From positions 1,088,001 through 1,152,000 of the forward strand of contig CAWFOU010000007.1 in assembly GCA_963817525.1 (NCBI GenBank): 64,000 nucleotides of DNA, read 5' to 3'. Below, one piece after another: positions 4,870-60,429 of this stretch; the stretch's first letter is position 1; each line of letters begins with the position of its first letter. This DNA comes from an uncultured archaeon. Its GTDB lineage: Archaea; Thermoproteota; Nitrososphaeria; Nitrososphaerales; Gagatemarchaeaceae. Under the pieces are notes generated by a model. It searched no databases, was not told the origin of the DNA, and saw only the letters and a program-made list of their open reading frames with translations. Position numbers and translations under genes: made by a program.

Positions 4870-5643
4870 CTATTTTGTCAGCGAGGACGCGAGCCGGTCG
4901 AGCGCGACGGAGATTCCATTCCCCCGCGCCCGGAGCAGGCTGACCAATCCCTCGGAGCTCACCGTCGGCTCCAGTGGGAGCTCGACCAACACCCTCGACC
5001 TTAGGCTGCGCTCAATGGATTCTCGGTCAGGCTTGCCGAAAGGATAGAGCACCCTCCCCTTGCTCGCCTTGAGATACGCCATGTTCAACACTATGCCTTC
5101 CACGGGCACCCGCTCGATCTCCGCGAGGCGCCGAAGCCTCGACACGACGGTCGTAGCTCCCTTCGAGGGCGTCGTGACCAGGATCAACGTTGATTTGCCT
5201 TGGAAGAGCGCGAACGCGGAGAGGAGCTCGTCGCCGGTGCTCGGGGGGAGGTCGACGACGAGGAAGTCAAGCTTCCCCCAGTTCGTCGACGCGAAGAGCT
5301 GGGTAATCAGGCTCTGTTTCTTGTCCCCCCTGAGCGGTATCGGTTTCTCGCCGGTGAACAAGGCTAGGGACATGACCTTCAGTCCCGCGACCTTCTTGGG
5401 CTCGAGCCCCCTGGCGGTGCTGCTGACCGGGGGCCTCACCCCCAGATAGCCTGGGACGCTGGCCCCGTGGATGTCGATGTCGAGCACGCCTGTCCTGTAG
5501 CCCTTCCGCTCTAGCGAGAGGGCCAGCCCGCAAGACACGAAGCTCTTGCCGACCCCGCCCTTTCCGCTCCCGACGAGGATGACCCGGCCAACGGCCTCCA
5601 TCTTCTTCCTCGAAGCTGCCCCCTCGAAATCTATCCAAGCCAA
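4870..5643 (-). CDS. Mrp/MinD-family P-loop ATPase, probable Mrp-type HypB partner of HypA
   Basis: SGKGGVGKS deviant Walker A, DIDIHGAS, DFLVVDLPPSTGDE; lacks the C-terminal CxxC of ApbC/Nbp35; directly downstream of hypA; TTG start inferred. Confidence 0.85.
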   Translation of the reverse strand: MAWIDFEGAASRKKMEAVGRVILVGSGKGGVGKSFVSCGLALSLERKGYRTGVLDIDIHGASVPGYLGVRPPVSSTARGLEPKKVAGLKVMSLALFTGEKPIPLRGDKKQSLITQLFASTNWGKLDFLVVDLPPSTGDELLSAFALFQGKSTLILVTTPSKGATTVVSRLRRLAEIERVPVEGIVLNMAYLKASKGRVLYPFGKPDRESIERSLRSRVLVELPLEPTVSSEGLVSLLRARGNGISVALDRLASSLTK

Positions 5644-5663
5644 CGGCTCTCTCCGCCTCCCCT

Positions 5664-6101
5664 TCAATCTAACACGACCCTCGCGATCCGGATGTCCTCG
5701 CCCCTTGTGGCTGTCGAGTCGGAGCTCCCGCAGCCGGGGCATCTGACGAAGCTGGGATACAGATACGGGAGAAAGTGCATCGGGAGCTCGACGCTGTCGG
5801 GCTCGCGGATCCTCAGGTCGTCGGGCACTGTGAGCAGCTGTTTCCTTGTCTCGTCCATCCCCCATTCCTTTCCGCACCTTCTGCACGTGAACGAGGCCTC
5901 TGTGACGCGGACTACCACCCTCGCGTCTTCCAGCCTCGGTCCCCTCATCAGGAGCCGCAGCGCGGCCTCAAGGGCCTTCACGTCCAGCTGCATGAGCTCC
6001 CCGACCTCGATCTCGACCGAGGCCACCTTCTCTGCGTTTGCCTTGTCTGCCTCAGCGAGGAGGGAGTCGACGATGCTCTGCGCGATTCCGAGTTCGTGCA
6101 A
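5664..6101 (-). CDS. hypA: Nickel metallochaperone HypA (long-insert, Thermococcales-like)
   Basis: N-terminal MHE Ni-binding motif; two CxxC (CRRC, CPGC) separated by a long insert. Confidence 0.93.
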   Translation of the reverse strand: MHELGIAQSIVDSLLAEADKANAEKVASVEIEVGELMQLDVKALEAALRLLMRGPRLEDARVVVRVTEASFTCRRCGKEWGMDETRKQLLTVPDDLRIREPDSVELPMHFLPYLYPSFVRCPGCGSSDSTATRGEDIRIARVVLD

Positions 6102-6168
6102 TTGCGGGCCGCCGTTTCCAAACCGGGCGGTCTACTAAACGAATTGGTCTTGGGCGCCAGGCTGGTCG

Positions 6169-7404
6169 CTAGAGCGCGGCCTTGACGGGCGGCCCGACTG
6201 GAGGTCTGTCGACCTGGTGCGGCTCGGCCGTCTCGCCGAAGTAGGCGTCCATCAGCCAGCTCCAGCCTCCTTGGATCGTGGACCAGTATATCTTCGCGAA
6301 CTCCCTCTTCATTTCGTAGCGCATGAAGGTCGGCTTTTCGGGCCCGGGCGCGGCATCGTAGGTCCCTGAGACGAAGAGCGCCCTCCGTCGTCCCGTTTCC
6401 ATCGGGCAGTTGATCCTCCCGTTGTATTCGAAGACCTCTCCGCCCCCGTTCAGGTCAGACGCGAGGTTCTTGGCGATTGTCTCCGCCTGCAGGTGCGCCA
6501 CCACGCCTGACTTTGAGATTGCTATGCTCGTGGCGTCGCCGAGCGCGTAGGCGTCCGTGCAGTCCTTCACTCTCATGGTGCGCTTGTCGGCAGGTATCCA
6601 TCCCTCCTCGTCCCCGATTCCCGAGGCCAGGACCACGTCAGCTCCTCTATGCGGGGGCACCGCGATGAGCAGGTCGTAGTCCTGGCTCTCCCCTTCGAGG
6701 TCGTAGATCTTCTTCGCGGACGGGTCGACGTGATCGGCTGCGAAGAACGGGACTACCTCGATGCCCCTCCTCTCGAACATCGGCTGTATCACCTCGGAGA
6801 TGTGCTCGGCCGGATACGCCCGGGGGTAGGGAGTGACGAACTTGATCCCCACCGATTTCCTGTTTCCGCGCTTCCGGAAGAACTCGTCTATCATGAACGC
6901 GGCCTCGTTCGGGGACGGAGGGCACTTGTGGGGGACGCTCGTGATGGCCACCACCACCTTCCCCCTCTTGAAACGCTGGAGGGCCTCCCATATCTTTGAC
7001 GCCTCGACGCCTCCGGTGTGAAAGTTCAACGAGCCCTCGAGCAGGCCGGGCATGAGCTCGGGCCTGGCGACGGCCCCCGTGGCGAAGACGACGTAGTCGT
7101 ACGACATCGCCGTCCCTCGTCGAGTCCTAAGGACCTTCTCTTTCATGTCGACGCTGGCCGCTCCGTCGCTGACGTATTCCACGCCCTTCTTCAGGAGTGT
7201 CGTTTCGCGGCGGACGGCCACCTTGGGGTCCGCCCCTTTGAACGCGATGTCGAGGTTGGCGGGCTGGAACGCGTGCTCGTCCCCTTCACCCACGAGCTGG
7301 ACGCCGACCTTGCCGCTGCGTATCTGTGCGTGGAGGTCACGGGCGAGGAGATTGGCGAGTAAGGTGCCCCCTGACCCCGCACCGACGATTACGACCCTCT
7401 TCAA
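6169..7404 (-). CDS. sqr: Sulfide:quinone oxidoreductase / FCSD-family flavoprotein
   Basis: GAGSGG FAD motif, HKCPPSPNE, GDAT...SKSG, second Cys in INCPMETG; follows tusA/dsrE. Confidence 0.85.
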   Translation of the reverse strand: MKRVVIVGAGSGGTLLANLLARDLHAQIRSGKVGVQLVGEGDEHAFQPANLDIAFKGADPKVAVRRETTLLKKGVEYVSDGAASVDMKEKVLRTRRGTAMSYDYVVFATGAVARPELMPGLLEGSLNFHTGGVEASKIWEALQRFKRGKVVVAITSVPHKCPPSPNEAAFMIDEFFRKRGNRKSVGIKFVTPYPRAYPAEHISEVIQPMFERRGIEVVPFFAADHVDPSAKKIYDLEGESQDYDLLIAVPPHRGADVVLASGIGDEEGWIPADKRTMRVKDCTDAYALGDATSIAISKSGVVAHLQAETIAKNLASDLNGGGEVFEYNGRINCPMETGRRRALFVSGTYDAAPGPEKPTFMRYEMKREFAKIYWSTIQGGWSWLMDAYFGETAEPHQVDRPPVGPPVKAAL

Positions 7405-7408
7405 GGAG

Positions 7409-7657
7409 CTACGCCCTCTTCTTTGTGACCCGGACGTCTATCCGTGTGTAGCCGTTCTCGTCGGCGATTTCTAGCACCTGATTCCCCGTGTGAGCCGCCC
7501 ACGCCTGTATGTCGCTCTTCGCGGCGGGGTCGGTCGCCCAGACCTCCAGGACCGACCCAAGTTCGGCAGTCCTGTACGCCCTGAAGAGGTCGGTGAGCGG
7601 CCCGGGGCAGAAGCTGCCCCTCGAGTCGATGACCTTCTTCTGGCCGGCTGCTTCCAT
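7409..7657 (-). CDS. tusA: Sulfurtransferase TusA family
   Basis: IDSRGSFCPGP (CPxP), LEVWATDPAAKSDI. Confidence 0.92.
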   Translation of the reverse strand: MEAAGQKKVIDSRGSFCPGPLTDLFRAYRTAELGSVLEVWATDPAAKSDIQAWAAHTGNQVLEIADENGYTRIDVRVTKKRA

Positions 7658-7669
7658 CCCTGCCGCCCC

Positions 7670-8131
7670 TCAGATGAAGATCGTCTGACCGCCTTCAGCG
7701 AGGTGAAGGAAGGTCGAGGCGCCCACGATGTCGTCGACCTCTGGGATGAAGTCCTCCTTCTTGAGCCCCATCATCTCCATCGTGGTAGAGCACGCGTGGA
7801 AGTGCACCCCCATGTCGTGCGCGTTGGCGACCATCTCTGGTATCGTCGGGATCTTCAGCTGTTTTATGGCAGCCCTTACCATCGGAGTGGTCATGCCTGG
7901 ACTCGCATCCGGGCCGACCTCGAGATTGGCCTCTTGGTTCCTGTTGATCACGGCCATCCCCCAAAATGTGAAGAAGACGTGAACCTGCATTCCCATGGCT
8001 GCCCCTGCGCTTGCGAGCATGAATGCAGGATAGGCCATGTCGAGCGATCCCTTCGAGAGTATTATCGAGAGCTTGTGGACCTGCTGAGTTTCAGGCTCCG
8101 ACCTTAATGCGGTCATTTCTGCCAACTTCAA
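7670..8131 (-). CDS. dsrE: DsrE2 (DsrE/DsrF/DrsH-like) sulfur carrier
   Basis: KGSLDMAYPAFMLA, FFTFWG, HACSTTMEMMG, VGASTFL. Confidence 0.9.
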   Translation of the reverse strand: MKLAEMTALRSEPETQQVHKLSIILSKGSLDMAYPAFMLASAGAAMGMQVHVFFTFWGMAVINRNQEANLEVGPDASPGMTTPMVRAAIKQLKIPTIPEMVANAHDMGVHFHACSTTMEMMGLKKEDFIPEVDDIVGASTFLHLAEGGQTIFI

Positions 8132-8179
8132 ACACCTGTGTGGTGGAGAGGCGTCCCGATATATAATTCCTGGACACGA

Positions 8180-8195
8180 TTCTCGGCCGAGAGAA
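8180..8195. promoter_or_regulatory. TTCTCA-N4-TGAGAA-type site (TTCTCG-GCCG-AGAGAA) upstream of the dsrE-tusA-sqr-hypA operon
   Basis: 13 nt from minus-strand TATA TTATATAT (8166-8159); motif shared with five other promoters. Confidence 0.6.
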
Positions 8196-8216
8196 CGGCC
8201 TCGGGAGGCAGGCGCC

Positions 8217-8567
8217 CTAGCCGCTTCCGTTCGCGCGGTCCACGATCGCGTTGGAGATCTGCTCTGCGGTCTTCCCCACGGTCGGGATTCCCAAGCGCTG
8301 AGCGGTCTCGATGAGCGCCGCGTTGGTCTCGGCCGCGGACGCCGCGGGAGCCGGAGCTGTCCCGACGGCGGGAGACGTGACCGATGCGAAGGTGCTCGCC
8401 AGGCTGCCCAGTCCGACTGGCTTCTGCGCCGCCCCGGCGGCGAACTCGTTCTTAGCCTGCCCCAGCGCCCGGGCGAGCTCCGGGATCTTCCTGGGCCCCC
8501 ACATTATGAACACCACAACCAGCGCCCCGACTATCAGGAGCTGCAACGGGTCGTCGAACAATGACAT
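8217..8567 (-). CDS. tatA: Twin-arginine translocase subunit TatA/E
   Basis: N-terminal TM followed by WGPRKIPELARALGQAKNEF. Confidence 0.9.
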   Translation of the reverse strand: MSLFDDPLQLLIVGALVVVFIMWGPRKIPELARALGQAKNEFAAGAAQKPVGLGSLASTFASVTSPAVGTAPAPAASAAETNAALIETAQRLGIPTVGKTAEQISNAIVDRANGSG

Positions 8568-8616
8568 GTCTTGTCGAGCCTTTGGTCTCGGGGAGCTTTA
8601 AAAAATCCGTGGGCGA

Positions 8617-8632
8617 TTCCCAACACTGAGAA
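8617..8632. promoter_or_regulatory. TTCCCA-ACAC-TGAGAA site in the divergent tatA/hypC promoter
   Basis: 13 nt from TTATTA (8646, + strand) and about 13 nt from TTTTAAA (minus strand, 8603). Confidence 0.65.
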
Positions 8633-8677
8633 TACCACCCAACGGTTATTAGAGCGGGGGCGCCCGCTGGCCTCGCC

Positions 8678-8917
8678 GTGTGTGTGACCAGGGTGGCGCA
8701 GGTCATCTCTGTCCAGGGAGACAAGGCGAACGTGAAGTTTGTCGAGAGCGAGGCGACGCGGGTCGTGGACGTGTCGATGGTCGAGACGAGGAAGGGCGGC
8801 TACGTCGAGGTCTTCGCCGACCAGGCCCTCTCGAGCCTGACCAAGGCGGAGGCGGAATGGAGGAAGAAAGTCTGGCTCGACCTGAGGGCCAAGCTGGAAG
8901 AAGCGACCGTCGATTGA
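8678..8917 (+). CDS. hypC: HypC/HupF-like small protein (degenerate)
   Basis: N-terminal MC, OB-fold-like pattern, C-terminal helix (KAEAE); Phe replaces the conserved His of GDYVLVH (GGYVEVF). Confidence 0.65.
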   Translation: MCVTRVAQVISVQGDKANVKFVESEATRVVDVSMVETRKGGYVEVFADQALSSLTKAEAEWRKKVWLDLRAKLEEATVD

Positions 8918-9702
8918 GGAAGCTAGGCGACGGGGGAAAGAAGCTCTCTGGGGAAGAGCGGGGCGAGCTCCTGCACGCCAAGCACGCGCTGGCCCCTAAC
9001 AGCTTGGGATACTGCGGGCCCGACGAGAACGGCAGGATTCTGGAGCACCTCCACGACTCCCTCGTGGACGAGAGCCTCGACTCGACCCTGAAGAGGTTTG
9101 AGGCCGCCTACCCCTTCGTCAGCATGATAGCAAAGTCCACGGGGAAGAGCCCGTTCGACTACGAAGTCGCCGAGGCCTACTGGATAGGGAACGGCCTGCT
9201 GGACAGGGTCGAGCCCTCCGAGTTCTACGAGTTCACGCACGCAGGCCTGAAGGCGCGCCTCCCGAAGCCGGAGATGAAGAGGCTCTTCCGGGACCTCGGT
9301 CCAATGGCGAGGCCGCACCACACGTTCTATGTCCTGGGGATGTACAGCCGCCCCAACGTCCAGTCCTCGCTCCAGCACAAGCTTCTCAACCTCATGGACT
9401 CGTGCAGGATATCCTGGGGGAAGGTCGTCGAGGTCAAGAGCAAGACGCTCGTCGTCGAGCGAGCCCCCCTCTCCCTGGGGGAAGACGAGCTGCTGAGCCT
9501 GACGCCTCCGGAGAAGAAGGAGATCCACTACGACAGCGGGATCCCCAATTTCGAGGGCATCAAAGGCGGCGACTGGGTCACGATCCACTGGAACTTCGCC
9601 AGCGAGAAGCTGACAAGACGCCAGCTCACGAACCTTAGGGCGTACACGAAGATGGACATCGAGGCGACTAACCGGCTCGTCGCTTCGCGCAAGCCCGACT
9701 AG
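8914..9702 (+). CDS. DUF6390-family protein
   Basis: APNSLGYCGP, AEAYWIGN, PHHTFYVL, MDSCRISWGKV, GDWVTIHW; TTG overlaps the hypC stop. Confidence 0.8.
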   Translation: MRKLGDGGKKLSGEERGELLHAKHALAPNSLGYCGPDENGRILEHLHDSLVDESLDSTLKRFEAAYPFVSMIAKSTGKSPFDYEVAEAYWIGNGLLDRVEPSEFYEFTHAGLKARLPKPEMKRLFRDLGPMARPHHTFYVLGMYSRPNVQSSLQHKLLNLMDSCRISWGKVVEVKSKTLVVERAPLSLGEDELLSLTPPEKKEIHYDSGIPNFEGIKGGDWVTIHWNFASEKLTRRQLTNLRAYTKMDIEATNRLVASRKPD

Positions 9703-9723
9703 GCTGGCGGAGGGGACGCCGAC

Positions 9724-10980
9724 CTGACCAACTCGCCCAGGAGCGGATGGCTCTCCCGGAGGCTGTCGGCCCTGACCACGCAGCCCGGATTCGCAGGCCC
9801 TTCCGCGAACCTGGGGTCGTCCGCGTCTTTGCTCATCATCCTGACCATGGGGTACGCCGTCTACGCGGCGGACAGGACGGTCCTCTCCTCGGTGCTCGCG
9901 CCGATCTCGACCTCGCTCTCCCTTACCAACTCCGAGATTGGGCTGCTGAGCGCCGCGCAGTACATCGGCGTGACCTGCGTGGTGTTCGCGGCGGGCTTCC
10001 TCTCCGACAGGTACGGCAGGTGGCCGGTGATAATCAGCGGCCTGGCCGTCTTCACCGCCTTCACGTGGCTCATCGGGCTGTCGTCGAGCTTCCTCGAGGC
10101 CTTCGTCTTCCGGCTGGTCAGCGGGTTCGGGGAGGGAGCCTTCTGGCCCGTGGCGATGGCGAGCGTGGCAAGCTACTTCAAGGGGCGGAAGGGGCTGTCG
10201 CTCGGCATATTCTACGTCGGGTTCGACGCGGGGAGCGTGGCCGGGCTCTCGATAGGAGGGGCGGCCTTCTCCCTCTCCTCGAGCTGGAGGCCCGCGTTCT
10301 TCGTCGCCCCGCTACTCGGTCTCTTTGTAATAGCCGGCGCGCTTGTCGCTCGAAAGAGGCTCGCCGCGGCGGGGCAGGGCGTCGGCCACATCGGGCTTGG
10401 GAAGGACGCGCTGCGGCTCCTTCGACGGAGGAACGTGGTCGTGATCATGGCGTTCGCGCTCCTCGCGACCTGGGCAAGCGTGTGGCAGGTCGTCTTCCTC
10501 CCGTACTACTTCTTCAAGGTCATGCACTTCACCGTCCTCTCCTCGGCGCTCCTGTCGTCCCTGGTCACAGTAGCGGGAGCGTGCGGAAAGATAGCCCTGG
10601 GCGGCCTCTCCGACTCTGTGAGGAGGAACAGGCTCCTCGTCGCCGTCACGTTCGCCACCCTCCTCTCCTACCTGCTCTTCTTCTCGTCCCTGAGCTTCGC
10701 CCTGGACATGGCCGGGGCGCTCTCCATGGGCTTCTTCAGCGCCTCGATCTTCCCAGTGGCGCAGGCCCTCATGACCGACAGCGGATCTGGCATGACGGGG
10801 AGCGCGCTGGGGCTGAGCACCTCGGCCCAGTCCGTCGCTACCGTCTTCTCGCCCATCATCGCGGCATCTCTGTTCACGCTCGGGGTAGGCAGAGCTGTCG
10901 CGCTGGACGCACTTATTCCGATTGCGCTGGCCCTCGTCGTCGCCCTGTTTCTGCGCGAGCCGAGGGCGGCGGCCTCGTAG
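9724..10980 (+). CDS. MFS transporter; possible CTG start 9724 (first TTG 9829)
   Basis: GFLSDRYGRW motif A, about 12 TM helices; GGAGGGG 8 nt upstream of the CTG. Confidence 0.9.
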   Translation: MTNSPRSGWLSRRLSALTTQPGFAGPSANLGSSASLLIILTMGYAVYAADRTVLSSVLAPISTSLSLTNSEIGLLSAAQYIGVTCVVFAAGFLSDRYGRWPVIISGLAVFTAFTWLIGLSSSFLEAFVFRLVSGFGEGAFWPVAMASVASYFKGRKGLSLGIFYVGFDAGSVAGLSIGGAAFSLSSSWRPAFFVAPLLGLFVIAGALVARKRLAAAGQGVGHIGLGKDALRLLRRRNVVVIMAFALLATWASVWQVVFLPYYFFKVMHFTVLSSALLSSLVTVAGACGKIALGGLSDSVRRNRLLVAVTFATLLSYLLFFSSLSFALDMAGALSMGFFSASIFPVAQALMTDSGSGMTGSALGLSTSAQSVATVFSPIIAASLFTLGVGRAVALDALIPIALALVVALFLREPRAAAS

Positions 10981-11129
10981 CGACTAGCTCGCCGGCGTCA
11001 CCAGGCCGCGGCGGCATCGCGTTTCTGGGCGGCGGACGTCGGTAATTTCCTTCAATACCGTACGCACCATTGAGGCGAAGTCGTCTCTATACATTTCCTT
11101 TAAATGACGGGCAAGGAGCATGCAAATCG

Positions 11130-11633
11130 ATGGCGAGCGAGGGGCTAATGGCAACCGCAGTCCCAATGCGAGTCGCCCTCGAGCCGTTGAACGTCGAAGG
11201 CACGCTCCTCAGTCCTAGACTGACCGAAGTGATGACCGAGGCAATATCAGACGGGGTTTCCAGAGCCATGCTCAGCTCCACGGTCCTGCGAGGAAAGACG
11301 GTCGAAGAGATCTGCTACGAGCAGGGGATACCCCAAAGCTCCTGCTACAGGAGGATGAGGCGCCTCATCGAGGAGGGCGCGATGGTGGTAGAAAGGATGG
11401 TGATCGCCTCCACCGGGAGGAAGTACGCGGTCTACAGGAGCGCGTTCTCCCGCCTGGACATCACGCTCGAGAACGGGGTAGTTTCGGCGTACGCCACAAT
11501 GAATCCGGACGTCGCCCACAAGCTGCGTCACACGCATCGCGCTCCCGAGTCGTCAAGCTCTTCCCATCAAAAGCTGTCGCCCTTCGTCATGCACCGAGGC
11601 GGCGGTCCACAAGCCGTAGCGGCGTCACCCTGA
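11130..11633 (+). CDS. Winged-helix (ArsR-like) transcriptional regulator
   Basis: KTVEEICYEQGIPQSSCYRRMRRLIEEG HTH followed by the GRKYAVYRS wing. Confidence 0.75.
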   Translation: MASEGLMATAVPMRVALEPLNVEGTLLSPRLTEVMTEAISDGVSRAMLSSTVLRGKTVEEICYEQGIPQSSCYRRMRRLIEEGAMVVERMVIASTGRKYAVYRSAFSRLDITLENGVVSAYATMNPDVAHKLRHTHRAPESSSSSHQKLSPFVMHRGGGPQAVAASP

Positions 11634-11753
11634 AGCGGACCCCCGTCAGGGACGTCCGCTACGGCCCATTCGGCCTCTTGAATCAGACTATTTCGCCAGG
11701 ATACGCACTGAATAAATCAGGGGAAATCTGGCGCCCCGCCAGGTGTAACGATA

Positions 11754-12053
11754 ACGAGCTCTAGCAACGACGGGCAAGAGGAAGAGGCAGTAGTCCAAGA
11801 ACGCGAAGTGGAGGCCGAGCCCGGCGCCGAGCCGGTGGAAGAAGCGGAAGAAGAGGCGGAGGCGCACGAGGAGGAGGTAGAGGAGGAGACCGAGGAGAAA
11901 GAGTCCGAAAAGATCGAGGACAGGCTCGACCAGAAGGTCAGCGGCGAGGGTGGCTCTGCAAAGACCAAGAGGAGGAGCGGCAAAAAGAAGAAAGCAAAGG
12001 CGAAGAAGCCTGCCGCAAAGTCCAAGCGCCGAGCCAAGTCGAAGCGCCGATAA
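11754..12053 (+). CDS. Small bipartite protein, Glu-rich N-half and Lys/Arg-rich C-tail; likely ACG start (first GTG 11808)
   Basis: EEAEEEAEAHEEEVEEETEE followed by KKKKAKAKKPAAKSKRRAKSKRR; AGGTG 8 nt upstream of the ACG. Confidence 0.6.
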   Translation, partial: TSSSNDGQEEEAVVQEREVEAEPGAEPVEEAEEEAEAHEEEVEEETEEKESEKIEDRLDQKVSGEGGSAKTKRRSGKKKKAKAKKPAAKSKRRAKSKRR

Positions 12054-12115
12054 CAGCTTCCCCCTCCGAGCAAGTCTGAAGGTTTTCCCTCGCCAATCTG
12101 TTGAACGGACGGGAA

Positions 12116-12131
12116 TTCTCATTTCTGAGAA
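12116..12131. promoter_or_regulatory. Perfect palindrome TTCTCA-TTTC-TGAGAA upstream of flavoprotein 1
   Basis: Upstream of TTAAATA (12148). Confidence 0.7.
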
Positions 12132-12178
12132 ACTACCCGAGTCTTACTTAAATACGGGAGGAGGACAAAACTCTCACA

Positions 12179-13874
12179 TTGTCGGACGATGCAAAGAAGG
12201 AGACTGAAAGTATCAACACCAAGGGGCTGGCGAGACGCAAGCTTCTCACGGGTGCTGTGGGAGGACTCGTCGTCGGCGCGGTCGCGGGGACCGCGCTCGG
12301 GTCACTTGGGCTTTCCAAAGACGGTAACTCAGCAAGTCACTCAGACCCAGACCGTAACTTCTATTCAATCCGTTTCTGTCCAGGCCGGGCTCCCCGCGAC
12401 GTGGGACTATCAGACTGACGTGGTCGTTGTCGGTGCTGGCGGCGCAGGTCTGTCCGCGGCGACAGGCGCACTGGAGTCTGGGGCGAAGGTCATCGTCCTC
12501 GAGAAGTCAGGGGCGGTGGGCGGCACCACGGCGCTCTCCGGCGGGGGGATGTGGGTTCCAAACTCCAGTCTGGCGGTAGCGGCAGGTCCGCCCAACACAA
12601 TCTCGCAATTCAACCTCCAGGAATACTTGAGCGCCATCGGGGAGGGCGAGCAAGATCAAGACCTCACCACGACATACCTGCAAGGGGCGCCTGGCTGGGT
12701 GGATCACCTGATTCAGACCTACGGGATGAAGTTCGTCCTAGCGACCACCTTCGTAGCTTACTATAACGTGCCTGGAGCGCAGGGCACTGGGCTTCAGGTT
12801 TCTCCAACCGGCGGTGGTCCTGGTGTCAGCGGAGCAGGGCTCGGGATCATTCAGACGCTCCACGGCGCAGTCACGAACATGGGAGGAACCGTCATGGTTT
12901 CGACCCCGGCCACGGCGCTCTACAAGGACGCCACAGGCCGAATTGTGGGCGCGCAGGCGACTTCCGGTACCTCGACAATCAACATAGGTGCAGGTAAGGG
13001 GGTCATCCTTGCTGCTGGCGGGTACGACCAGAACGCCGCGATGATGGCGAACTATCAGCGGGGTCCGGTTCATCTTACCAGCGCCGTAGCCGGAAACACT
13101 GGCGACGGCATTCAGATGGCCATGTTCGCGGGGGCGGACATCGGCAACATGAACAACGCGTGGGGGTGCCCGCACTACAACACCCCGAGCGGCGGCATCC
13201 CAGACTGGTCCCTTATACGCGGCAAGCCTGGAGCGATAGTCGTCAACAGCGCGGGGCAGAGGTTCGCCAACGAGTCGTCCGCTTACCCGGTCTTCAACAG
13301 GACATTCTACGAATGGTCGAACGCCATATACGGCTACCCGAACCTGCCAGGATACACCATCATAGACAACACGTTCAACACCAAATACGGCTTCGTGACA
13401 TATGTCCCCAATTCGACTCCGCCAAGCTATGTGTCAACGGCAAACACCCTTGCAGACCTTGCGACGGCCCTCGGCATCGACCCGGACGGCCTTCAGGCCA
13501 CCGTAACGCAGTTCAACCAGTACGCGGCGAACGGGGTTGACCCTGATTTCCACAGGGGCGAGTTCAGCTTCGATTTGAATACGGCAGGTGACCCGACGAG
13601 GACCGACCTGGCGAACATCTGCCTGGGGCCTATCGAGACCCCTCCCTTCTACGGACTAGAGATAGATCCTGGCACCATAGGCACTTCGGGAGGCCCCAGA
13701 ATAAACTCCAACGCTCAGGTCCTCGACCAGGAGGGCAACACGATTGCCGGGCTCTACGCCGCTGGCAACGACTCGGCCTCTCCGTTCGGGGCGGCCTATC
13801 CGGGCGGGGGAGGCACTGTGGGTCCCGCTACTTTCTTCGGTTGGATTGCTGGCAAAAGCGCGGGAAGCTCCTAG
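12179..13874 (+). CDS. Tat-exported FAD-binding oxidoreductase, 3-ketosteroid delta1-dehydrogenase (KstD)-like; +1 frameshift at 12308-12310
   Basis: Signal peptide LARRKLLTGAVGG is in frame 12179; the body (GAGGAG, GGTTALSGGGMW, FANESSAY, YPGGGGTVGPA) is in frame 12189. The paralog shows the join ...GSLG|FPKTVTQ. Confidence 0.85.
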
Positions 13875-14106
13875 CACCGGAACGCCACGCAGGCGATCTG
13901 ACCCCTCCCCATTGGCAGTGACACAAGACCTAAGGGAGAACGGAGGGTGAATAATTTGAAGCCTCTCTCCGTGCCGCGGTGGGTCTTGGATTATTGAAGG
14001 CCAATTTATGATTGATGTCGGCGGGCCGCAAGACAATCCTGGCCAAGTCGAGGTGGCGATGCTACTATCTCATAGAAGAAAAGTCTCATCCGGTTGTTCA
14101 TGAGAA

Positions 14107-14122
14107 TTCTCACCTCTGAGAA
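14107..14122. promoter_or_regulatory. Perfect palindrome TTCTCA-CCTC-TGAGAA upstream of flavoprotein 2
   Basis: 13 nt upstream of TTAAATA (14136); extra TGAGAA/TCTCA half-sites at 14068-14106. Confidence 0.7.
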
Positions 14123-14165
14123 TCGGCTTCGGGAATTAAATACTCGCCGGACCACAATCAGACCA

Positions 14166-15830
14166 TTGTCTGAAGTGAAGAAAGAATCGGAGAGCATGGA
14201 TGCAAAGGGATTGGCAAGGCGAAGACTCCTCACGGGGGCCGTGGGAGGCCTGGTCGTCGGCGCAGTAGCAGGGGCGGCAGTTGGCTCGCTCGGTTTCCCA
14301 AAGACGGTCACCCAAACACAGACACAAACGATGACGTCCACGAGTTCGACGACGTTGGGAATCCCGACAACCTGGGACTACCAAGCGGACGTCGTCATCA
14401 TGGGCGCCGGCACAAGCGGTCTGTCTGCGGCCCTCGAAGCCGCGGCAGCGGGAGCCAAGGTAATTGTCCTCGAGAAAGAGCCGAGCTCGGCGCTCGCAAA
14501 TTCTGGCCATTGCGCCGGGACCATAGTCGGGGTGAACAGCGCACAGCAGACGGCCGCGGGTATAACGGACTCGCCCTCCATCTACTATGCCGAGTTGACG
14601 GGACCCGGGAGCAACCCTCTCTTCGACCCGGCCGTCGCGATGTCGATTTGCAACAATAGCGGCGCGGCCATAGCTTGGCTGACGCAGCAGGGAATCCAAT
14701 GGGCTCCCTACTGCCCGCTGCTCGACGGCCAGTCTACGGCTCCTCGAATGATGGCCGCTCTGCCGGACTCCTCCACCTACCCGGCCACGCTGAACGCGAA
14801 CGCGGTGAAAGCGGGCGTGCAGATTCTCTATAACACCCCCGTCGGCTCCCTTTACAGGGACCCAGTAAACGGAGTCGTGGGGCTCTCGGCCAAGGCGACG
14901 AGCGGTGTCATCAACGTCAAGGCCAACAGAGCGGTGGTCCTGGCCGCGGGCGACAACGCAGCCAACGCCAAGATGCTGGCGCAAGCCTCCGCAATCCCGA
15001 GCTGGTTCACGACCCTGCCCCCCGAGGGAAGTCCCGGGAGCACAGGAGACGGGATAATCGCGGGAATGGCGGTCGGGGCGGCTCCCGTGGCCTTGGCCAC
15101 CGCTGTCACCGAGCCGTCCTTCGGGTTCGTCGTTGGAAACACAAGGATCGTCCCAGATACCTCGTACGGCTATACACCGGGTTCGACGAATGTCAACGCC
15201 AAGCTCAGCGCCTTCGCATACCAGCCGGCGATACTCTCATACGCCATCTACGTGAACAGTGCCGGGAACAGATACACGAACGAGACGGGCAGCACCGTCG
15301 CTGCGGACACGTTCGCTCTTTCTGACATGAAGTCGTTCATGATCTTCGACAGCGCCCCAGCAAACCTCAACGTGTACATGCACGTCAGCGCAGGACACAC
15401 TCTCTTCAAGGAGTGGCTGGCAGACGGAGCGCTGGCACAGGCGGACACGCTCGACGGCCTGGCCTCATCCCTCGGAATCAACTCGTCAGGCTTGGCGGCT
15501 GGGGTGGCGACGTGGAACGGCAATGTCGCCGCGAACAAGGATTCCAGCTTCGGCAGGACGATTTTCGTCTCCCCGATCAGCACAGGGCCTTTCTATGGCA
15601 TCCCGGCCACTCTGTTCTCGCTTGAGCTCGCCAACGGCACCCTGAACGTCGACGTCGCGACACAAAACGTGCTCGATGAGTCGGGCAACCCCATCCCGAG
15701 ACTCTACGCTGCGGGCGATAACGGCAGGGCAGGGGTGATGGGAGGCGGGCACGGCACGCACATGGTATGGACCTTCATCTCCGGCCGTCAGGCCGGGACT
15801 AGCGCGGCGTCAGAAACCTCCTTGGCGTAG
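14166..15830 (+). CDS. Tat-exported FAD-binding oxidoreductase (flavocytochrome c/fumarate reductase flavoprotein superfamily), paralog 2
   Basis: LARRRLLTGAVGG Tat motif, GAGTSG, GSTGDGI, IPRLYAAGD; TTG start matches paralog 1. Confidence 0.88.
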   Translation: MSEVKKESESMDAKGLARRRLLTGAVGGLVVGAVAGAAVGSLGFPKTVTQTQTQTMTSTSSTTLGIPTTWDYQADVVIMGAGTSGLSAALEAAAAGAKVIVLEKEPSSALANSGHCAGTIVGVNSAQQTAAGITDSPSIYYAELTGPGSNPLFDPAVAMSICNNSGAAIAWLTQQGIQWAPYCPLLDGQSTAPRMMAALPDSSTYPATLNANAVKAGVQILYNTPVGSLYRDPVNGVVGLSAKATSGVINVKANRAVVLAAGDNAANAKMLAQASAIPSWFTTLPPEGSPGSTGDGIIAGMAVGAAPVALATAVTEPSFGFVVGNTRIVPDTSYGYTPGSTNVNAKLSAFAYQPAILSYAIYVNSAGNRYTNETGSTVAADTFALSDMKSFMIFDSAPANLNVYMHVSAGHTLFKEWLADGALAQADTLDGLASSLGINSSGLAAGVATWNGNVAANKDSSFGRTIFVSPISTGPFYGIPATLFSLELANGTLNVDVATQNVLDESGNPIPRLYAAGDNGRAGVMGGGHGTHMVWTFISGRQAGTSAASETSLA

Positions 15831-15885
15831 AAACGAGATGCGCTTACGCATATATCGCAAAGGAAACAAAGAGCCTCGGGGATAG

Positions 15886-16827
15886 ATGCAAGAAAAAGTC
15901 GAGCGCGGCGGAAGGGGGGGCCGCTCCGGCGCTCTCCCGATCGCACTGGTGCTGATCGCCATTTTGTTCGGCGCATCCATTCAGCGAGTGAGTGCGGTAA
16001 CCACGATCACGGCGTATCAAGCGCAGACTCCGGTGACCCTCAACGGAGTCGTGTCTCCGGGTGAATGGTCGGATACCCCGCTGGTAAATATCCCAGAGGC
16101 GGGCATGAACGTAGCCTTCAAGCACAACTCAACTGGTCTCTTCATTCTCATGCAGTGGAGCCAAAATCCCTCTACCTGCACCGACCAATATTGCTACGGA
16201 GGCATCGAGTTCGGTTACCTTAACAACACCGGCCCGATGGGTGACACTGCCACTCCCACCGTCATGCTGCTTCTGAGCACGTCTTTTACGGGAGGTTACG
16301 ACGAATTCATATCAAAGGCCGAAGCCACCCCGACATCGGTCGAGTCCGACGGATACAAGACTCAATCCACGTGCGCTCTAAAGCTCTCGGGCACAAGTTA
16401 CACAGCCGAGTGCTATCGGCCCTTCACCCTGAGCAATGCCTCACCCTACGATCCGTTCCCCGGCCTTGTAGCGGGCTCCCCCCTCGAGGTTGCATTCGCG
16501 GTAGGGGAGTTCGACGCGCCAGGGGACCATGCGGCATCGGACATGAGCACCTACGTCTTGACTTTGAGCAACCAGACATTTTCCGCTACTTCGACCTCCT
16601 CATCATCGACGAGCTCCCAGTCCTCGGCGACGATCAGCTCTTCGATAGCCTCGGCCTCCTCGTCGACGTCGACTGCATCATCGACTCAAACTAGCAGCAC
16701 ATCAACGCTTACCTCGGTCTCCACCTCGCCCACTGCAGCGTCGACCTACGCGGAAGAACTTCTGGTCTTGTCCGTGGGGTTCGCGGTGCTGATCTTGGTG
16801 GTCCTGACGAAATACGAGAGGAACTGA
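15886..16827 (+). CDS. Secreted, C-terminally anchored DOMON/CBM9-like protein with Ser/Thr linker
   Basis: Signal peptide, PVTLNGVVSPGEWSD DOMON-like start, candidate Met (GPMG) and His (GDHAA) ligands, S/T-rich stalk, C-terminal TM. Confidence 0.6.
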   Translation: MQEKVERGGRGGRSGALPIALVLIAILFGASIQRVSAVTTITAYQAQTPVTLNGVVSPGEWSDTPLVNIPEAGMNVAFKHNSTGLFILMQWSQNPSTCTDQYCYGGIEFGYLNNTGPMGDTATPTVMLLLSTSFTGGYDEFISKAEATPTSVESDGYKTQSTCALKLSGTSYTAECYRPFTLSNASPYDPFPGLVAGSPLEVAFAVGEFDAPGDHAASDMSTYVLTLSNQTFSATSTSSSSTSSQSSATISSSIASASSSTSTASSTQTSSTSTLTSVSTSPTAASTYAEELLVLSVGFAVLILVVLTKYERN

Positions 16828-16830
16828 GTT

Positions 16831-17448
16831 ATGGAATTCCTCGGGATACAGATGCTGACGTGGCACGACTTTGTCGTGGAGCTCCACACCGGAGTCGCTG
16901 TCTTCGCAATTCTCGCGATAGTGCTGCGGGTTCTCGTCGACGCCGGCCAGAGGGGGAAGACCAACCCCTCGGGGAGAGTCCTGGAGATACGACAGGGAAC
17001 AGACTTTGTCGCCTACGCCGGGTCGGTAGTCGCCGTGATCTTCCTGGTCGCATCGGGCATAACCGGCTATTACATCCTGCCATACTCGACGCTCGTCAGC
17101 CAGACGATCTACCTCAACAAGGCATTCACTGCACTCGGCGCGCTGTTCTTCTGGTCGGCTTACGCCTTCCTGAGATACTGGTCCGGCCCCAAGATGTGGG
17201 AAAAGAAGGGGCTCTACGCGGTCGCGGTGGCGACTGCCTTCCTCGGCATTCTCTTCACGACGCTCGCGGGCTCAATCGGGGCGGAGCTTTCAATCGGCCA
17301 GTCCGTCCTTACCCCAGTCTACAACGCCCTCTCGATAAACTTCCGGCAGCTCGCGCTGGAGCCGATAGACGTGGAGATAACGGCGGCCCTCCTCGTAATC
17401 GCGATTCTCATAGCGGCGTTCCTCAAACCGTCGCAAACCAAGCGCTAA
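16831..17448 (+). CDS. Membrane protein (DUF2231/cytochrome b-like)
   Basis: About 5 TM helices, N-terminal WHDFVVELHTG His pair; 3 nt after the upstream gene. Confidence 0.55.
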   Translation: MEFLGIQMLTWHDFVVELHTGVAVFAILAIVLRVLVDAGQRGKTNPSGRVLEIRQGTDFVAYAGSVVAVIFLVASGITGYYILPYSTLVSQTIYLNKAFTALGALFFWSAYAFLRYWSGPKMWEKKGLYAVAVATAFLGILFTTLAGSIGAELSIGQSVLTPVYNALSINFRQLALEPIDVEITAALLVIAILIAAFLKPSQTKR

Positions 17449-17490
17449 CAGGTTGGCCTAAGCACTCGAAAAACGAGGGCCCTGCGACGA

Positions 17491-17506
17491 TTCTCAAACT
17501 CGATAA
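17491..17506. promoter_or_regulatory. Degenerate site TTCTCA-AACT-CGATAA
   Basis: 13 nt upstream of TTATAAG (17520), promoter of the 17561 gene. Confidence 0.5.
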
Positions 17507-17560
17507 TCGCATGTCGGTGTTATAAGCCCAGACCTTCGTTTCCCTGCCAAGGCGTTCGAC

Positions 17561-18106
17561 ATGATTCAAGAGATGCAGGGGAAGTGGGCGGGGAGGTTCA
17601 TCGGGGCTGCCATAGTCCAGGGCCTAATCGTGGCCGTCATAACGGTGCTCATCGTGGAGCCGTGGACCTACTTCAACGTAAAATCTTACTTCAGCCCGGC
17701 CATGGTCATCGCGGGAGGCGGGGGAGGGACGTGGATGTTTACGGGCTACGTCCTCTATCTGATGGTGGGCGTGGTCGCGGTGGCGGTCACCGCGGTCTTC
17801 TACTTCTACATCGAAGACGTAATGGGGAGGCAGTACCACGGTCTGACGAGCGCTCTCGCCTGGGGGCACTTCATCCTGATGAACGTGGGAGTCGCCGGCT
17901 CGATGCTCCTGATGATCTGGGGGGGGTGGGTCGCGGGGTATGCGAGCGCCGCGGTCGCCGAGGGTGGCCTAGGTTTGACGGACGAGCAGATTCACGTGCG
18001 GTACTTGAGCCAGCTCGTCGACCCCATAGGCACGCTGGTCCTCCTGGCAGTTCTTGGGGCAGTTCTTGGCGGCGTGGGATTCGTCATCAGAAGCGGGACG
18101 CGCTAA
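17561..18106 (+). CDS. Hypothetical 4-TM membrane protein with intramembrane His
   Basis: Hydrophobic helices, LAWGHFILMNVG; own TATA box. Confidence 0.7.
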   Translation: MIQEMQGKWAGRFIGAAIVQGLIVAVITVLIVEPWTYFNVKSYFSPAMVIAGGGGGTWMFTGYVLYLMVGVVAVAVTAVFYFYIEDVMGRQYHGLTSALAWGHFILMNVGVAGSMLLMIWGGWVAGYASAAVAEGGLGLTDEQIHVRYLSQLVDPIGTLVLLAVLGAVLGGVGFVIRSGTR

Positions 18107-18186
18107 GTTTCCCTCTCTACTTGGATTTGGGCCGCAAGATTCGCCCCGGAGGAAGCCTGCGCGGGGCGTGATGACCAGAAGACTGG

Positions 18187-19008: not shown

Positions 19009-19080
19009 GGGTCTAAGCTGGACCCTCCCCCCTTTAAGGGGAGTGCACGACGAGACGGACGAGCCCCGGTGGCGAAGCGC

Positions 19081-19230
19081 CTAGCGAGAGTGGCCGAACC
19101 TGTGCGGGTCCTTGTCGAAGCTGGCCTTACACGCCGCCGAGCAGAAGTAGAACACGTTGCCGTCGTGGGCAGACCTGAACTTCGCCGTCTTCTCGTCCAC
19201 CGTCATGTTGCAGACTGGGTCCTTCGCCAC
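19081..19230 (-). CDS. YHS/TRASH-domain copper chaperone (49 aa; below the ORF-track cutoff)
   Basis: Manual translation: MAKDPVCNMTVDEKTAKFRSAHDGNVFYFCSAACKASFDKDPHRFGHSR. Confidence 0.9.
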   Translation of the reverse strand: MAKDPVCNMTVDEKTAKFRSAHDGNVFYFCSAACKASFDKDPHRFGHSR

Positions 19231-60400: not shown

Positions 60401-60429
60401 ATCCACCGAACTGGCTTCTGCCGCATGGG

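Follow-up and report, generated by a model that had tools for sequence, protein, structure and literature searches.

Archaeal activators act upstream of the TATA box, and the excerpts of three reports used here describe the regulatory systems closest to the one analysed below. OxsR of Haloferax volcanii is a single-domain, TrmB-type winged-helix regulator that activates from a palindrome 5′ of the BRE/TATA element, with an effect that depends on motif position; it controls thiol- and sulfur-relay genes, its binding has been seen by ChIP-seq, and its function hinges on a conserved cysteine, C24, in the N-terminal dimer interface (PMC9426492). Haloarchaeal denitrification promoters carry a semi-palindrome, CGAAYATDKTYG, with a 4-nt centre, which lies 66 to 79 nt ahead of the ATG in several respiratory promoters and is associated with Tat-dependent, copper/redox enzymes at low oxygen; it was defined largely through comparative promoter analysis and mutagenesis, NarO is its proposed regulator in H. 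volcanii, and the regulator in H. mediterranei is not known (PMC10062603). Among bacteria, the mycobacterial DosR regulon, which readies a soil aerobe for hypoxia, includes universal stress proteins, to which M. smegmatis adds the hydrogenases Hhy and Hyh (PMC8125079).

We analysed a palindrome, TTCTCA-N4-TGAGAA, that the first-pass annotation had read from a 64-kb stretch of archaeal DNA (the window) as the sign of an undescribed regulon. Judged from sequence, it appears to mark co-controlled promoters of genes for hydrogen and sulfide oxidation, nickel supply, protein export, respiration, and stress, both in this genome and in its relatives. All six sites claimed in the window are present where they had been placed. 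They are listed here with the core promoters read next to them and the genes that follow; scores are from a position weight matrix (PWM) built from 52 sites of relatives and then scanned across this genome.

8180..8195, minus strand: motif site 1, TTCTCTCGGCCGAGAA, two mismatches, dsrE operon (PWM 16.6, minus orientation)
8159..8168, minus strand: TATA-like box of the dsrE operon, 11 nt from site 1, read from sequence
4870..8131, minus strand: operon dsrE-tusA-SQR-hypA-Mrp (Pfam)
7670-8131, minus strand: dsrE (Pfam)
7409-7657, minus strand: tusA (Pfam)
6169-7404, minus strand: SQR/FCSD-like flavoprotein, a pyridine-nucleotide-disulfide oxidoreductase (Pfam)
5664-6101, minus strand: hypA (Pfam)
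4870-5886, minus strand: NUBPL/Mrp-type ATPase (Pfam)
8617..8632, no single strand: motif site 2, one mismatch, common to two divergent promoters (PWM 26.8 for tatA, 14.5 for hypC)
8597..8606, minus strand: TATA-like box of tatA, 10 nt from site 2 and 30 nt ahead of the tatA start
8217..8567, minus strand: tatA (Pfam TatA_B_E)
8646..8651, plus strand: TATA-like box of hypC, 13 nt from site 2 and 32 nt ahead of the hypC start
8678..10980, plus strand: hypC-DUF6390-MFS genes (Pfam)
8678-8917, plus strand: hypC (Pfam)
Inside ORF 8680-9702, plus strand: DUF6390 protein (Pfam)
9829-10980, plus strand: MFS transporter (Pfam)
11130..11633, plus strand: ArsR/Phr-like winged-helix protein, candidate regulator; own TATA-like box TTTAAAT about 25 nt upstream, motif absent there
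12116..12131, plus strand: motif site 3, perfect (PWM 19.9)
12144..12154, plus strand: TATA-like region TTACTTAAATA, with TTACTT 12 nt or TTAAATA 16 nt from site 3
12179..13874, plus strand: Tat-signal KstD/flavocytochrome-c-like flavoprotein 1 (FAD_binding_2), frameshifted
14107..14122, plus strand: motif site 4, perfect (PWM 25.3)
14134..14142, plus strand: TATA-like box AATTAAATA, 11-13 nt from site 4
14166..17448, plus strand: operon of flavoprotein 2, a 313-aa protein and a 205-aa protein (ORFs)
14166-15830, plus strand: Tat-signal flavoprotein 2 (FAD_binding_2), with an in-frame TTG start at 14166
15886-16827, plus strand: 313-aa secreted protein (ORF)
16831-17448, plus strand: 205-aa membrane protein (ORF)
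17491..17506, plus strand: motif site 5, two mismatches (PWM 21.9)
17520..17525, plus strand: TATA-like box TTATAA, 13 nt from site 5
17561..18106, plus strand: 181-aa membrane protein, no family assigned (ORF)
60369..60384, plus strand: motif site 6, two mismatches (PWM 18.1)
60397..60402, plus strand: TATA-like box TTAAAT, 12 nt from site 6
60430..61662, plus strand: Tat-signal metallophosphoesterase (domain search)

Most of the gene names proposed earlier agree with Pfam, but flavoprotein 1 needs correction: a frameshift in the assembly splits it over two ORFs, with the Tat signal in ORF 12179-12418 and the FAD domain in ORF 12189-13874. A contig of run X6 has 1 nt missing at 12306, within this gene. 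Contigs of runs X10 and X1 have 4 nt missing at 12143, which puts TTAAATA 12 nt from site 3. The spacings to the TATA-like box first given (13 nt at four sites, 12 at one, and 16 at one) are broadly matched, and read as 10-16 nt depending on where the box is taken to start. In contigs of one RNA run, regulon promoters and genes are covered alike.

The palindrome is far commoner than background. Neither of the two perfect window copies has a counterpart in 100 dinucleotide shuffles, and the window holds seven matches at two or fewer mismatches against 1.72 ± 1.19 expected, a number reached in none of 100 shuffles. The match beyond the six sites, at 44836, falls within a PEP carboxylase gene (44034-45620) and was taken as a chance match; genome-wide, many two-mismatch matches likewise fall within coding sequence and look chance-like. 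Across this genome (2.82 Mb) there are five perfect copies versus 0.166 expected under a first-order Markov model (Poisson P = 9e-7), all five of them intergenic according to a crude in-house gene caller that leaves 17.5% of the genome between genes. The other 22 genomes of the genus contain 102 perfect copies, compared with 3 for a reversed control, and 20 of the 22 have at least one. The same rough calling puts 41 of 45 perfect copies between genes in 20 regions retrieved from relatives; these regions were picked for motif clusters, and their motif counts are therefore not independent evidence, while TATA spacing and gene content are independent of that choice.

We then applied the PWM, built only from relatives, to this genome. 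Its top matches (score ≥16) are 12 distinct sites, and all 12 are promoter sites with an A/T box 9-12 nt away, an arrangement found at 20.9% of random intergenic positions; site 6, which the gene caller placed in the final bases of the upstream ORF, is counted among them. The enrichment upstream of TATA boxes for which a PWM scan had been suggested is present, the proposal that one cis-element ties these promoters together holds, and the palindrome sits in the zone of archaeal activators, as had been supposed. In the oriented logo of the 52 relatives' sites, the operator extends to R-TTCTCA-N4-TGAGAA-TCGT, with a conserved proximal TCGT, and a TTA core lies 13 nt past the motif. Spacing from motif to TATA is constant to within a base or two over dozens of promoters, and a start codon is first seen 42-55 nt past the motif in 38 of 53 called downstream genes of relatives. 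In this genome, TATA hexamers are most frequent 28-33 nt ahead of start codons, as expected for leaderless transcripts; because transcripts are mostly leaderless and the motif ends 12-13 nt upstream of TATA, the site would span about −59 to −44.

Motif promoters lack the A-rich BRE signature typical of ordinary promoters. Counting from the start of TTA, ordinary promoters of this genome have A at −5 in 37 of 76 cases and at −4 in 36 of 76, whereas the motif promoters, here those of relatives, have A at these positions in 2 of 35 and 1 of 35 (Fisher P ∼4e-6 and ∼8e-7, respectively).

The regulon in this genome comprises at least 12 promoters in three motif islands. On the window side its targets are HypA, HypC, the Mrp-type ATPase, DsrE-TusA-SQR, TatA, the two Tat flavoproteins with their partners, and the Tat metallophosphoesterase. 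Beyond the block at 8159-17526, the motif precedes an operon for a Tat-exported [NiFe]-hydrogenase, its cytochrome b, and a maturation protease; a NicO nickel transporter, a CBS-domain protein with a B12/radical-SAM protein, and, on another contig, two respiratory operons: one encoding Rieske/cytochrome b, with a 455-aa protein as its first gene, and one encoding a cupredoxin. Targets seen additionally in relatives are cytoplasmic stress proteins (universal stress proteins, Usp, and Hsp20), ferredoxin-type proteins, and secondary regulators. The "export-linked redox module" of the first-pass annotation thus stands insofar as Tat and redox genes are targets, but the set is wider than that description, taking in the hydrogenase, NicO, CBS, and respiratory operons and, in relatives, Usp, Hsp20, and regulators.

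Among 53 first genes past a site in relatives, the families are FAD_binding_2 (10), Usp (4), VapB-like ribbon-helix-helix (RHH) (4), AllG (3), Bmp (3), and DsrE, CBS, and NiFe small subunit (2 each), with NicO, HypC, DUF6390, HTH_10, HSP20, and Rieske once each. Homologues of flavoprotein 2, the 313-aa protein, and the 205-aa protein all recur within relatives' motif islands; the first two also occur as the first gene past a site, and the 205-aa family is seen in islands only. Sites are kept in orthologous promoters: at five of eight evaluable loci for the hydrogenase small subunit (three without), at 6 of 15 for homologues of the 455-aa protein (nine without), and at five of five for one HTH_10 group. 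At least one orthologous site each was found for DsrE, CBS, NicO, hypC/DUF6390, a 603-aa protein, and the 181-aa membrane protein behind site 5; the palindrome is perfect at the dsrE orthologues in genomes G018 and G014 and at both the hypC/DUF6390 and 181-aa orthologues in G008.

Taken as a whole, the palindrome is probably the operator of one dimeric factor that activates the BRE-poor promoters of a redox and stress regulon. The factor would dock at about −59 to −44 and most likely help TBP/TFB onto a core promoter that has no usual A-rich BRE; both the position and the missing BRE fit an activator that recruits TBP/TFB. Gene content suggests that such a regulon could switch cells to alternative electron donors and respiratory routes and add stress and persistence functions.

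The winged-helix protein at 11130-11633, proposed earlier as the activator, belongs to an undescribed ArsR/Phr-like family that may read the palindrome, an assignment to which we give somewhat less than an even chance. This genome has three paralogues, one per motif island, with near-identical recognition helices (S[ST]CYR[RK]) that contain the family's only invariant cysteine. The family is the most widespread in motif islands (9 of 12 genomes sampled), and a member, counted at E ∼1e-16 or better, lies within 10 kb of a site in 15 of the 19 genus genomes that have one. The nearby sites come with a TATA-like box in 12 of these (G000, G001, G002, G003, G006, G008, G010, G012, G013, G015, G018, and G020); for G004, G017, and G021, the closest site matches the palindrome perfectly, with a box that is unchecked or absent at the scored spacing. 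Members in G005, G007, G009, and G014 are not close to a site, and none was found in G016, G022, and G024, which do have sites and are 71%, 54%, and 83% complete, respectively. The assignment is tentative because the palindrome was found in none of the examined promoters of the winged-helix genes themselves. In a type linked to Usp (wHTH-Usp), the sole family member found in G006, G012, and G018, the promoter carries another, conserved palindrome, GTACA-N2-TGTAC, together with ACGTACAAG at the TATA box; this element is unique in this genome and could be that type's own operator.

Structure prediction gives the candidate an ArsR/Phr-like fold. The AF2 model has a core pLDDT of >90, and its Foldseek matches include Phr, PH1932, PerR, NolR, SmtB, HlyU, and SqrR, the best being Pyrococcus furiosus Phr and the PH1932 ArsR homologue (PDB 2p4w, 1uly, and 2cwe; E = 2e-4 to 1e-3, TM ∼0.4-0.5). 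At the sequence level, the window protein falls below both Pfam cut-offs (HTH_20, 18.5 bits versus 27; TrmB, 18.8 versus 25.6), 19 of 20 family members match HTH_20 at E ≤0.01, and a PDB sequence search returned nothing significant (best profile, E 0.019, an Lrp-type protein). A symmetric homodimer was predicted with a score of 0.60 against 0.06 for the best control, passing a mark that is also reached by 20 of 30 proteins whose solved structures are pairs and by 1 of 23 whose structures are single chains, although this pass may reflect likeness to solved dimers since dimers of that fold have already been solved; contact agreement among the runs was 100% and pLDDT was ≥85.

That the same operator and regulon are read by some other factor is close to an even bet. 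Candidates are a Cys-rich HTH_10 protein of the NarO/Bat type, an RHH protein of ∼175 aa (RHH-175) encoded divergently from the winged-helix gene, an RHH-[4Fe-4S] fusion (RHH-Fer4), or a factor encoded elsewhere. The motif islands do hold genes for DNA-binding proteins besides the winged-helix one. Besides the absence of the motif from the winged-helix promoters, which favours such a reader, the motif stands immediately upstream of one HTH_10 orthologue group in five of five genomes from three genera (perfect in G018, G019, G020, and G024; one mismatch in G023), and the group has conserved cysteines, a combination that fits an autoregulated sensor. Yet this group was not found in most motif-bearing genomes, including this one, where the best match has 31% identity over partial length; the HTH_10 gene in this genome's own island has an orthologue in G021 only, and neither query found a relative in G006 and G012, incomplete genomes with six and seven perfect sites. 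HTH_10 is therefore too sparsely present to be the general reader. The RHH-Fer4 gene follows a perfect motif in G006, G012, and G018 but was not found in this genome (tblastn, 1e-3), and RHH-175 is paired with the winged-helix gene in G001, G007, G008, G010, G015, and G021 but lies far from every site here (C1:303401).

It is unlikely that the palindrome is a repressor operator that keeps promoters off until an effector frees the factor, as in most ArsR/SmtB and Phr systems. The candidate's closest folds, Phr, PerR, NolR, SmtB, HlyU, and SqrR, do belong to proteins that act mainly as repressors, and a dsrE-tusA-sqr operon is a typical target of bacterial persulfide-sensing repressors of the ArsR type. 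Against this, the site stops short of TATA, overlapping neither it nor BRE nor the start; occlusion would not need the fixed spacing seen across dozens of promoters, and the lack of an A-rich BRE suggests that these promoters need a helper. A nickel-responsive, NikR-type regulon for the hydrogenase and its nickel supply is very improbable: NicO, HypA, HypC, and the [NiFe]-hydrogenase are all targets and this genome has a NikR_C homologue (C1:1052053-1052250), but that gene is on another contig far from any site, most targets have no nickel link (flavoproteins, Rieske/cytochrome b, Usp, CBS, DsrE), and the hydrogenase small subunit found no match in 14 of the 22 other genomes of the genus, many of which hold 5-10 perfect sites (e.g., G007, G018, and G021). 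Chance similarity, a dispersed repeat, or a mobile-element remnant without regulatory role, for which the match at 44836 and the coding-sequence matches might speak, has a negligible probability given counts far above expectation, the fixed position relative to TATA and start codon, sites kept in orthologous promoters of other species and genera, and an N4 spacer and flanks that vary from copy to copy and so do not come from one element.

A fuller reading of the activator model, which we consider doubtful as a whole, is that Group I.1c-type soil Thaumarchaeota have a DosR-like switch for persistence and electron donors, in which a new ArsR/Phr-like activator at −59 to −44 recruits TBP/TFB to BRE-less promoters. 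This activator might sense redox state or sulfur through the invariant cysteine of its recognition helix and would co-induce H2 and sulfide oxidation, nickel uptake, hydrogenase maturation, Tat export, exported KstD-like flavoproteins, an alternative Rieske/cytochrome b-cupredoxin chain, Usp, Hsp20, and CBS proteins. If true, the regulon list would tell directly how these uncultivated archaea make their living.

We found no description of the palindrome in the literature searched, including the main text of the Gagatemarchaeaceae paper, in keeping with the earlier remark that it was not recognised from a described archaeal regulator. As far as the excerpts consulted allow comparison, OxsR is similar in pairing a small winged-helix protein (here a candidate) with a palindrome 5′ of BRE/TATA, sulfur-relay targets, and a conserved cysteine. 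It differs in that its motif is CG-rich and unrelated in sequence, its cysteine is at the dimer interface rather than in the recognition helix, and it is TrmB-type, whereas the candidate scores below the Pfam TrmB cut-off; OxsR binding is seen by ChIP-seq, and the palindrome here is a predicted operator. Phr and PH1932 share with the candidate a winged helix and a C-terminal extension serving dimerisation, at 15-20% sequence identity, but Phr represses over the start site, whereas the palindrome here is upstream of TATA. NarO is of the HTH_10 type and carries cysteines at its N-terminal end; among the genomes studied here, five have a Cys-rich HTH_10 protein as a motif target, but such a protein is too rare for a general reader. 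The denitrification regulon, in the sections drawn on, differs in half-sites, lineage, and target genes, and resembles ours in having, at a constant distance ahead of respiratory promoters, a short palindrome whose centre is 4 nt long. The mycobacterial DosR regulon also includes Hsp20, a CBS protein, and ferredoxin. DosR is a bacterial two-component response regulator, unrelated in motif, promoter logic, and lineage, and the likeness, within the part of that report used here, is one of content: Usp and hydrogenase, with Hsp20, CBS, and ferredoxin-type proteins, joined here by alternative respiratory components. The palindrome regulon is new; the kind of regulation that it represents is already known.

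All six motif sites claimed in the first-pass annotation (TTCTCA-N4-TGAGAA, starting at window positions 8180, 8617, 12116, 14107, 17491, and 60369) were recovered at those positions by a pattern search of the window. Two of them, 12116 and 14107, are perfect copies (none in 100 dinucleotide shuffles), and the window holds seven matches at ≤2 mismatches where 1.72 are expected, a number reached in 0 of 100 shuffles. Six of these seven matches are the previously noted sites; the seventh, at 44836 within a PEP carboxylase gene, is probably due to chance. TATA-like boxes had also been reported, and we find an A/T-rich box 10 to 13 nt away, on the side of the served gene, at every site except 12116, where TTAAATA lies 16 nt off in this assembly. 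Contigs from two public sequencing runs lack 4 nt at 12143, giving a motif-TTAAATA spacing of 12 nt instead of 16; the missing nucleotides are one CTTA of a tandem pair between site 12116 and its TATA box, a strain difference. A contig from another public run lacks 1 nt at 12306, where the gene for the flavoprotein that follows site 12116 is frameshifted in this assembly. Gene names assigned previously were largely borne out by Pfam and NCBIfam.

The window spans C7:1088001-1152000 of the genome of this uncultured soil archaeon (assembly of 2.82 Mb, 61% GC, and 15 contigs, rated 8.75% contaminated); the organisms named as sources of homologous proteins suggest a non-ammonia-oxidizing thaumarchaeon. 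The whole genome has 5 perfect copies, whereas a first-order Markov model predicts 0.166 (P = 9e-7), and all 5 are intergenic according to a rough gene caller of our own that leaves 17.5% of the genome intergenic. For the scan for promoter enrichment that had been proposed earlier, we built a position weight matrix (PWM) from 52 sites of other species only, which avoids circularity. Twelve distinct sites score at least 16 and all are promoter sites, although the caller has window site 60369 falling at the very end of the ORF before it; an A/T box lies 9 to 12 nt away at 12 of 12 top sites versus 20.9% of random intergenic positions. A thirteenth match, on contig C15, duplicates site 17491. The regulon as first drawn therefore stands for its window sites but not as confined to them, since 5 of the top 12 sites are new.

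New sites among the 12 best PWM matches, and one weaker site (contig:position)
C7:1074141, before genes for a CBS protein and a B12/radical-SAM protein
C7:1076661, before the gene for a NicO nickel transporter
C7:1082450, before genes for a Tat-signal [NiFe]-hydrogenase small subunit, the large subunit, cytochrome b, and a maturation protease
C8:82805, before the gene for a 603-aa secreted protein, with a cupredoxin later in the operon
C8:87097, before genes for a 455-aa protein, a Rieske protein, and cytochrome b
C10:24462, weaker site (score 12), before a 58-aa ORF

The twelfth top site (C7:855782-855797) combines a high score with odd spacing, an A/T box following 4 nt after the motif; no downstream ORF was found in any frame, and another half-site lies ~60 nt further. 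It may serve a noncoding transcript or represent a repressive arrangement. Twin-arginine signals occur on five proteins of the regulon in this genome, namely, both flavoproteins, a metallophosphoesterase, the hydrogenase small subunit, and the Rieske protein. Short contigs from a peat metatranscriptome (run X10) cover genes and promoters (11786-12187, 14038-14286); these contigs reveal neither transcript starts nor levels. Contig C15 (5,250 nt) is 98% identical over 2.5 kb to window positions 16729-19229 in reverse orientation and then diverges into a different flavoprotein gene; it is either a strain variant or a second locus.

The hydrogenase region (L001, on C7) has several features of its own. 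The large subunit (L001:15738-17329, corresponding to C7:1083738-1085329) is broken up between two ORFs that overlap in different frames (15738-16376 and 16193-17329), reflecting either a frameshift or an assembly error. An insertion sequence (L001:13265-14444; DDE_Tnp_1 transposase at 13372-14400, 34-nt inverted ends) separates the hydrogenase motif site, which lies 5 nt downstream of it, from a divergent universal stress protein (Usp) gene; the Usp orthologue in relative G018 has its own perfect motif, and none was seen for the Usp gene here. Between this Usp gene and an HTH_10 gene, L001:11078-12691 encodes a 537-aa protein that matches V_ATPase_I only in part.

The regulon is real and conserved. 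Of the 22 other genomes in the genus, 20 carry perfect copies; these total 102, versus 3 of a reversed control, and are clustered in islands of 10 to 20 kb. In 20 regions fetched from 11 genomes, which were picked for motif clusters so that motif counts within them are not independent, our caller places 41 of 45 perfect copies in intergenic sequence, and an A/T box flanks one side, and one side only, of 52 of 70 sites at ≤2 mismatches. Oriented by that box, the logo reads R-TTCTCA-N4-TGAGAA-TCGT, then 8 to 9 nt, then TTTAWWA, with conserved promoter-proximal and weak distal flanks. Genuine-looking sites extend beyond the genus, into two more genera of its family (G023, G024) and into another family of the order (G040); the perfect copies in the low-GC genomes G029 and G038 (32 to 34% GC) look like chance matches, with no appropriately spaced TATA box. 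Orthologous promoters had been suggested as a further check. Searches for the hydrogenase small subunit turned it up in 8 of 23 genus genomes, and its promoter keeps the site in five of eight evaluable upstream regions (three are without it). For homologues of the 455-aa protein, the site is present at 6 of 15 loci, mainly the closest orthologues, and not at the other 9. Other species also keep it ahead of DsrE, CBS, NicO, hypC/DUF6390, the 603-aa protein, a 181-aa membrane protein, and many flavoprotein paralogues. Both the element and its targets are well supported.

How the element acts, through which factor, and in response to what signal we infer from promoter architecture and gene content. 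Half-site centers 10 bp apart fit a symmetric dimer, and the arrangement of motif and promoter is at odds with occlusion. The first start codon lies 42 to 55 nt past the motif for 38 of 53 downstream genes called in relatives, and TATA hexamers in this genome peak 28 to 33 nt ahead of start codons; both fit leaderless transcripts and so place the motif at about −59 to −44. Comparing motif promoters of relatives with ordinary promoters of this genome, and counting from the start of the TTA, A occupies −5 in 2/35 and −4 in 1/35 of the former versus 37/76 and 36/76 of the latter. Because A is rare at these positions, the motif promoters are without a BRE-like signature. The bound factor would then be an activator that makes up for a weak BRE.

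The winged-helix protein at 11130-11633 had been proposed as this activator. Its family is unnamed (members are annotated at source as "predicted transcriptional regulator") and falls under the Pfam cutoffs for HTH_20 and TrmB, with a predicted model matching Phr, PH1932, and ArsR/SmtB-type proteins. A symmetric homodimer is predicted (score of 0.60 versus 0.06 for the best control, contact agreement of 100%, pLDDT of at least 85), at a mark that 20 of 30 proteins with a solved pair structure also attain, as does 1 of 23 whose solved structure is a single chain. This pass may reflect likeness to similar dimers already solved; a sequence search of the PDB returned nothing significant (best E of 0.42 for the single protein and 0.019 for the family profile). 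There are two close paralogues in this genome, one adjoining NicO (L001:9799-10230) and the other heading a winged-helix-Usp operon in the respiratory island on C8 (L002:17550-18125), and a fourth, more distant copy lies elsewhere. In favor of the proposal, unbiased clustering of all island genes identifies this family as the most widespread, in 9 of 12 genomes. A member lies ≤10 kb from a site in 15 of the 19 genus genomes having one at an E value of ~1e-16 or better; the nearby site has a TATA-like box in 12 of those 15, and in G004, G017, and G021 the nearest site is a perfect copy with a box unchecked or none at the scored spacing. Against it, the motif was not found in any promoter of the family examined, and four genomes carry the gene distant from any site. 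The argument that a genome lacking the motif would lack the regulator too failed for G003, which has promoter-like sites at 1 to 2 mismatches, two of them 2 to 3 kb from its divergent winged-helix gene; in G005, no promoter-like site was seen among 8 matches listed, from 7 of 17 match places. The promoter of the winged-helix-Usp operon (L002:18126-18252; orthologous loci L029, L030, and L041) carries a palindrome, GTACA-N2-TGTAC, and ACAAACGTACAAGCC beside its TATA box, both conserved in four species and unique in the present genome; the palindrome may be a separate autoregulatory operator of the winged-helix-Usp type.

The chance that some other factor reads the motif is close to even. One candidate is a Cys-rich HTH_10 protein with a conserved C-x10-C-x2-C (L030:18680-19369, L074, L075, L076, and L077), which has the motif directly upstream in all five orthologues, from five genomes and three genera, and may act as a redox sensor, either secondary or autoregulated; searches of most genomes that carry the motif did not find it, and it has no close orthologue here. 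A 175-aa RHH protein is encoded divergently from the winged-helix gene in six genomes, followed by a 71-aa protein (L026:2812-3675, L035, L040, L034, L039, and L014), yet its homologue in this genome (C1:303401-303910) is remote from any site. Fusions of a VapB-like RHH and a single-cluster 4Fe-4S domain (140 to 146 aa) follow a perfect motif in three genomes (L028:7704-8126, L031:4498-4920, and L041:8904-9344) and were set aside as regulators, not being found in this genome. The HTH_10 gene in our own hydrogenase island (L001:10381-11067) was likewise rejected, with an orthologue in G021 only. Just outside the window island, 19322-19939 encodes an Lrp/AsnC regulator with a C-terminal TRASH metal-binding domain; it was not found in the motif islands of relatives. 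We retain the winged-helix family as a tentative candidate for the motif-reading factor, at somewhat less than an even chance.

The targets themselves bear on function. By Pfam family, the 53 first downstream genes in relatives include FAD_binding_2 (10), Usp (4), VapB-like RHH (4, 3 of them fused to a 4Fe-4S domain), AllG and Bmp (3 each), DsrE, CBS, and NiFe small subunit (2 each), and NicO, HypC, DUF6390, ABC ATPase, HTH_10, HSP20, and Rieske (1 each). The core theme is alternative electron donors, respiratory parts, their maturation and export, and general stress proteins. A purely nickel- or hydrogenase-specific regulon is ruled out because the motif is kept in genomes where no hydrogenase small subunit was detected.

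The gene content recalls the mycobacterial DosR program, whose members include universal stress proteins and also hydrogenases in the case of M. smegmatis (PMC8125079). For this reason, hypoxia or energy limitation is a reasonable guess at the inducing signal. The signal may instead be sulfur or redox, given the dsrE-tusA-sqr target and an invariant cysteine in the predicted recognition helix of the candidate regulator.

Non-ammonia-oxidizing soil Thaumarchaeota are abundant and uncultured, and to our knowledge nothing is in print on how they regulate their genes. Genes brought together by the conserved operator share control rather than homology, and here the operator ties proteins of unknown function (the exported flavoproteins and their partners, the 455-aa and 603-aa proteins heading respiratory operons, and DUF6390) to H2 and sulfide oxidation and respiration. 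The grouping yields testable hypotheses for cultivation, e.g., H2, sulfide, or low oxygen, and a marker set for reading metatranscriptomes. With its fixed spacing and missing BRE, the system would also offer a clean natural case of activator-dependent recruitment in archaea.

The motif, the regulon, and the candidate winged-helix family are undescribed in the literature searched, supplements lying outside its scope; the main text of the Gagatemarchaeaceae paper mentions no hydrogenase, promoter, or sulfide, and its supplements may list such genes. The kind of system is already known. The closest described systems are OxsR, a small activator of the winged-helix type whose palindrome lies 5′ of the BRE/TATA box (PMC9426492), and the semipalindrome of haloarchaeal denitrification, which lies upstream of respiratory promoters (PMC10062603).
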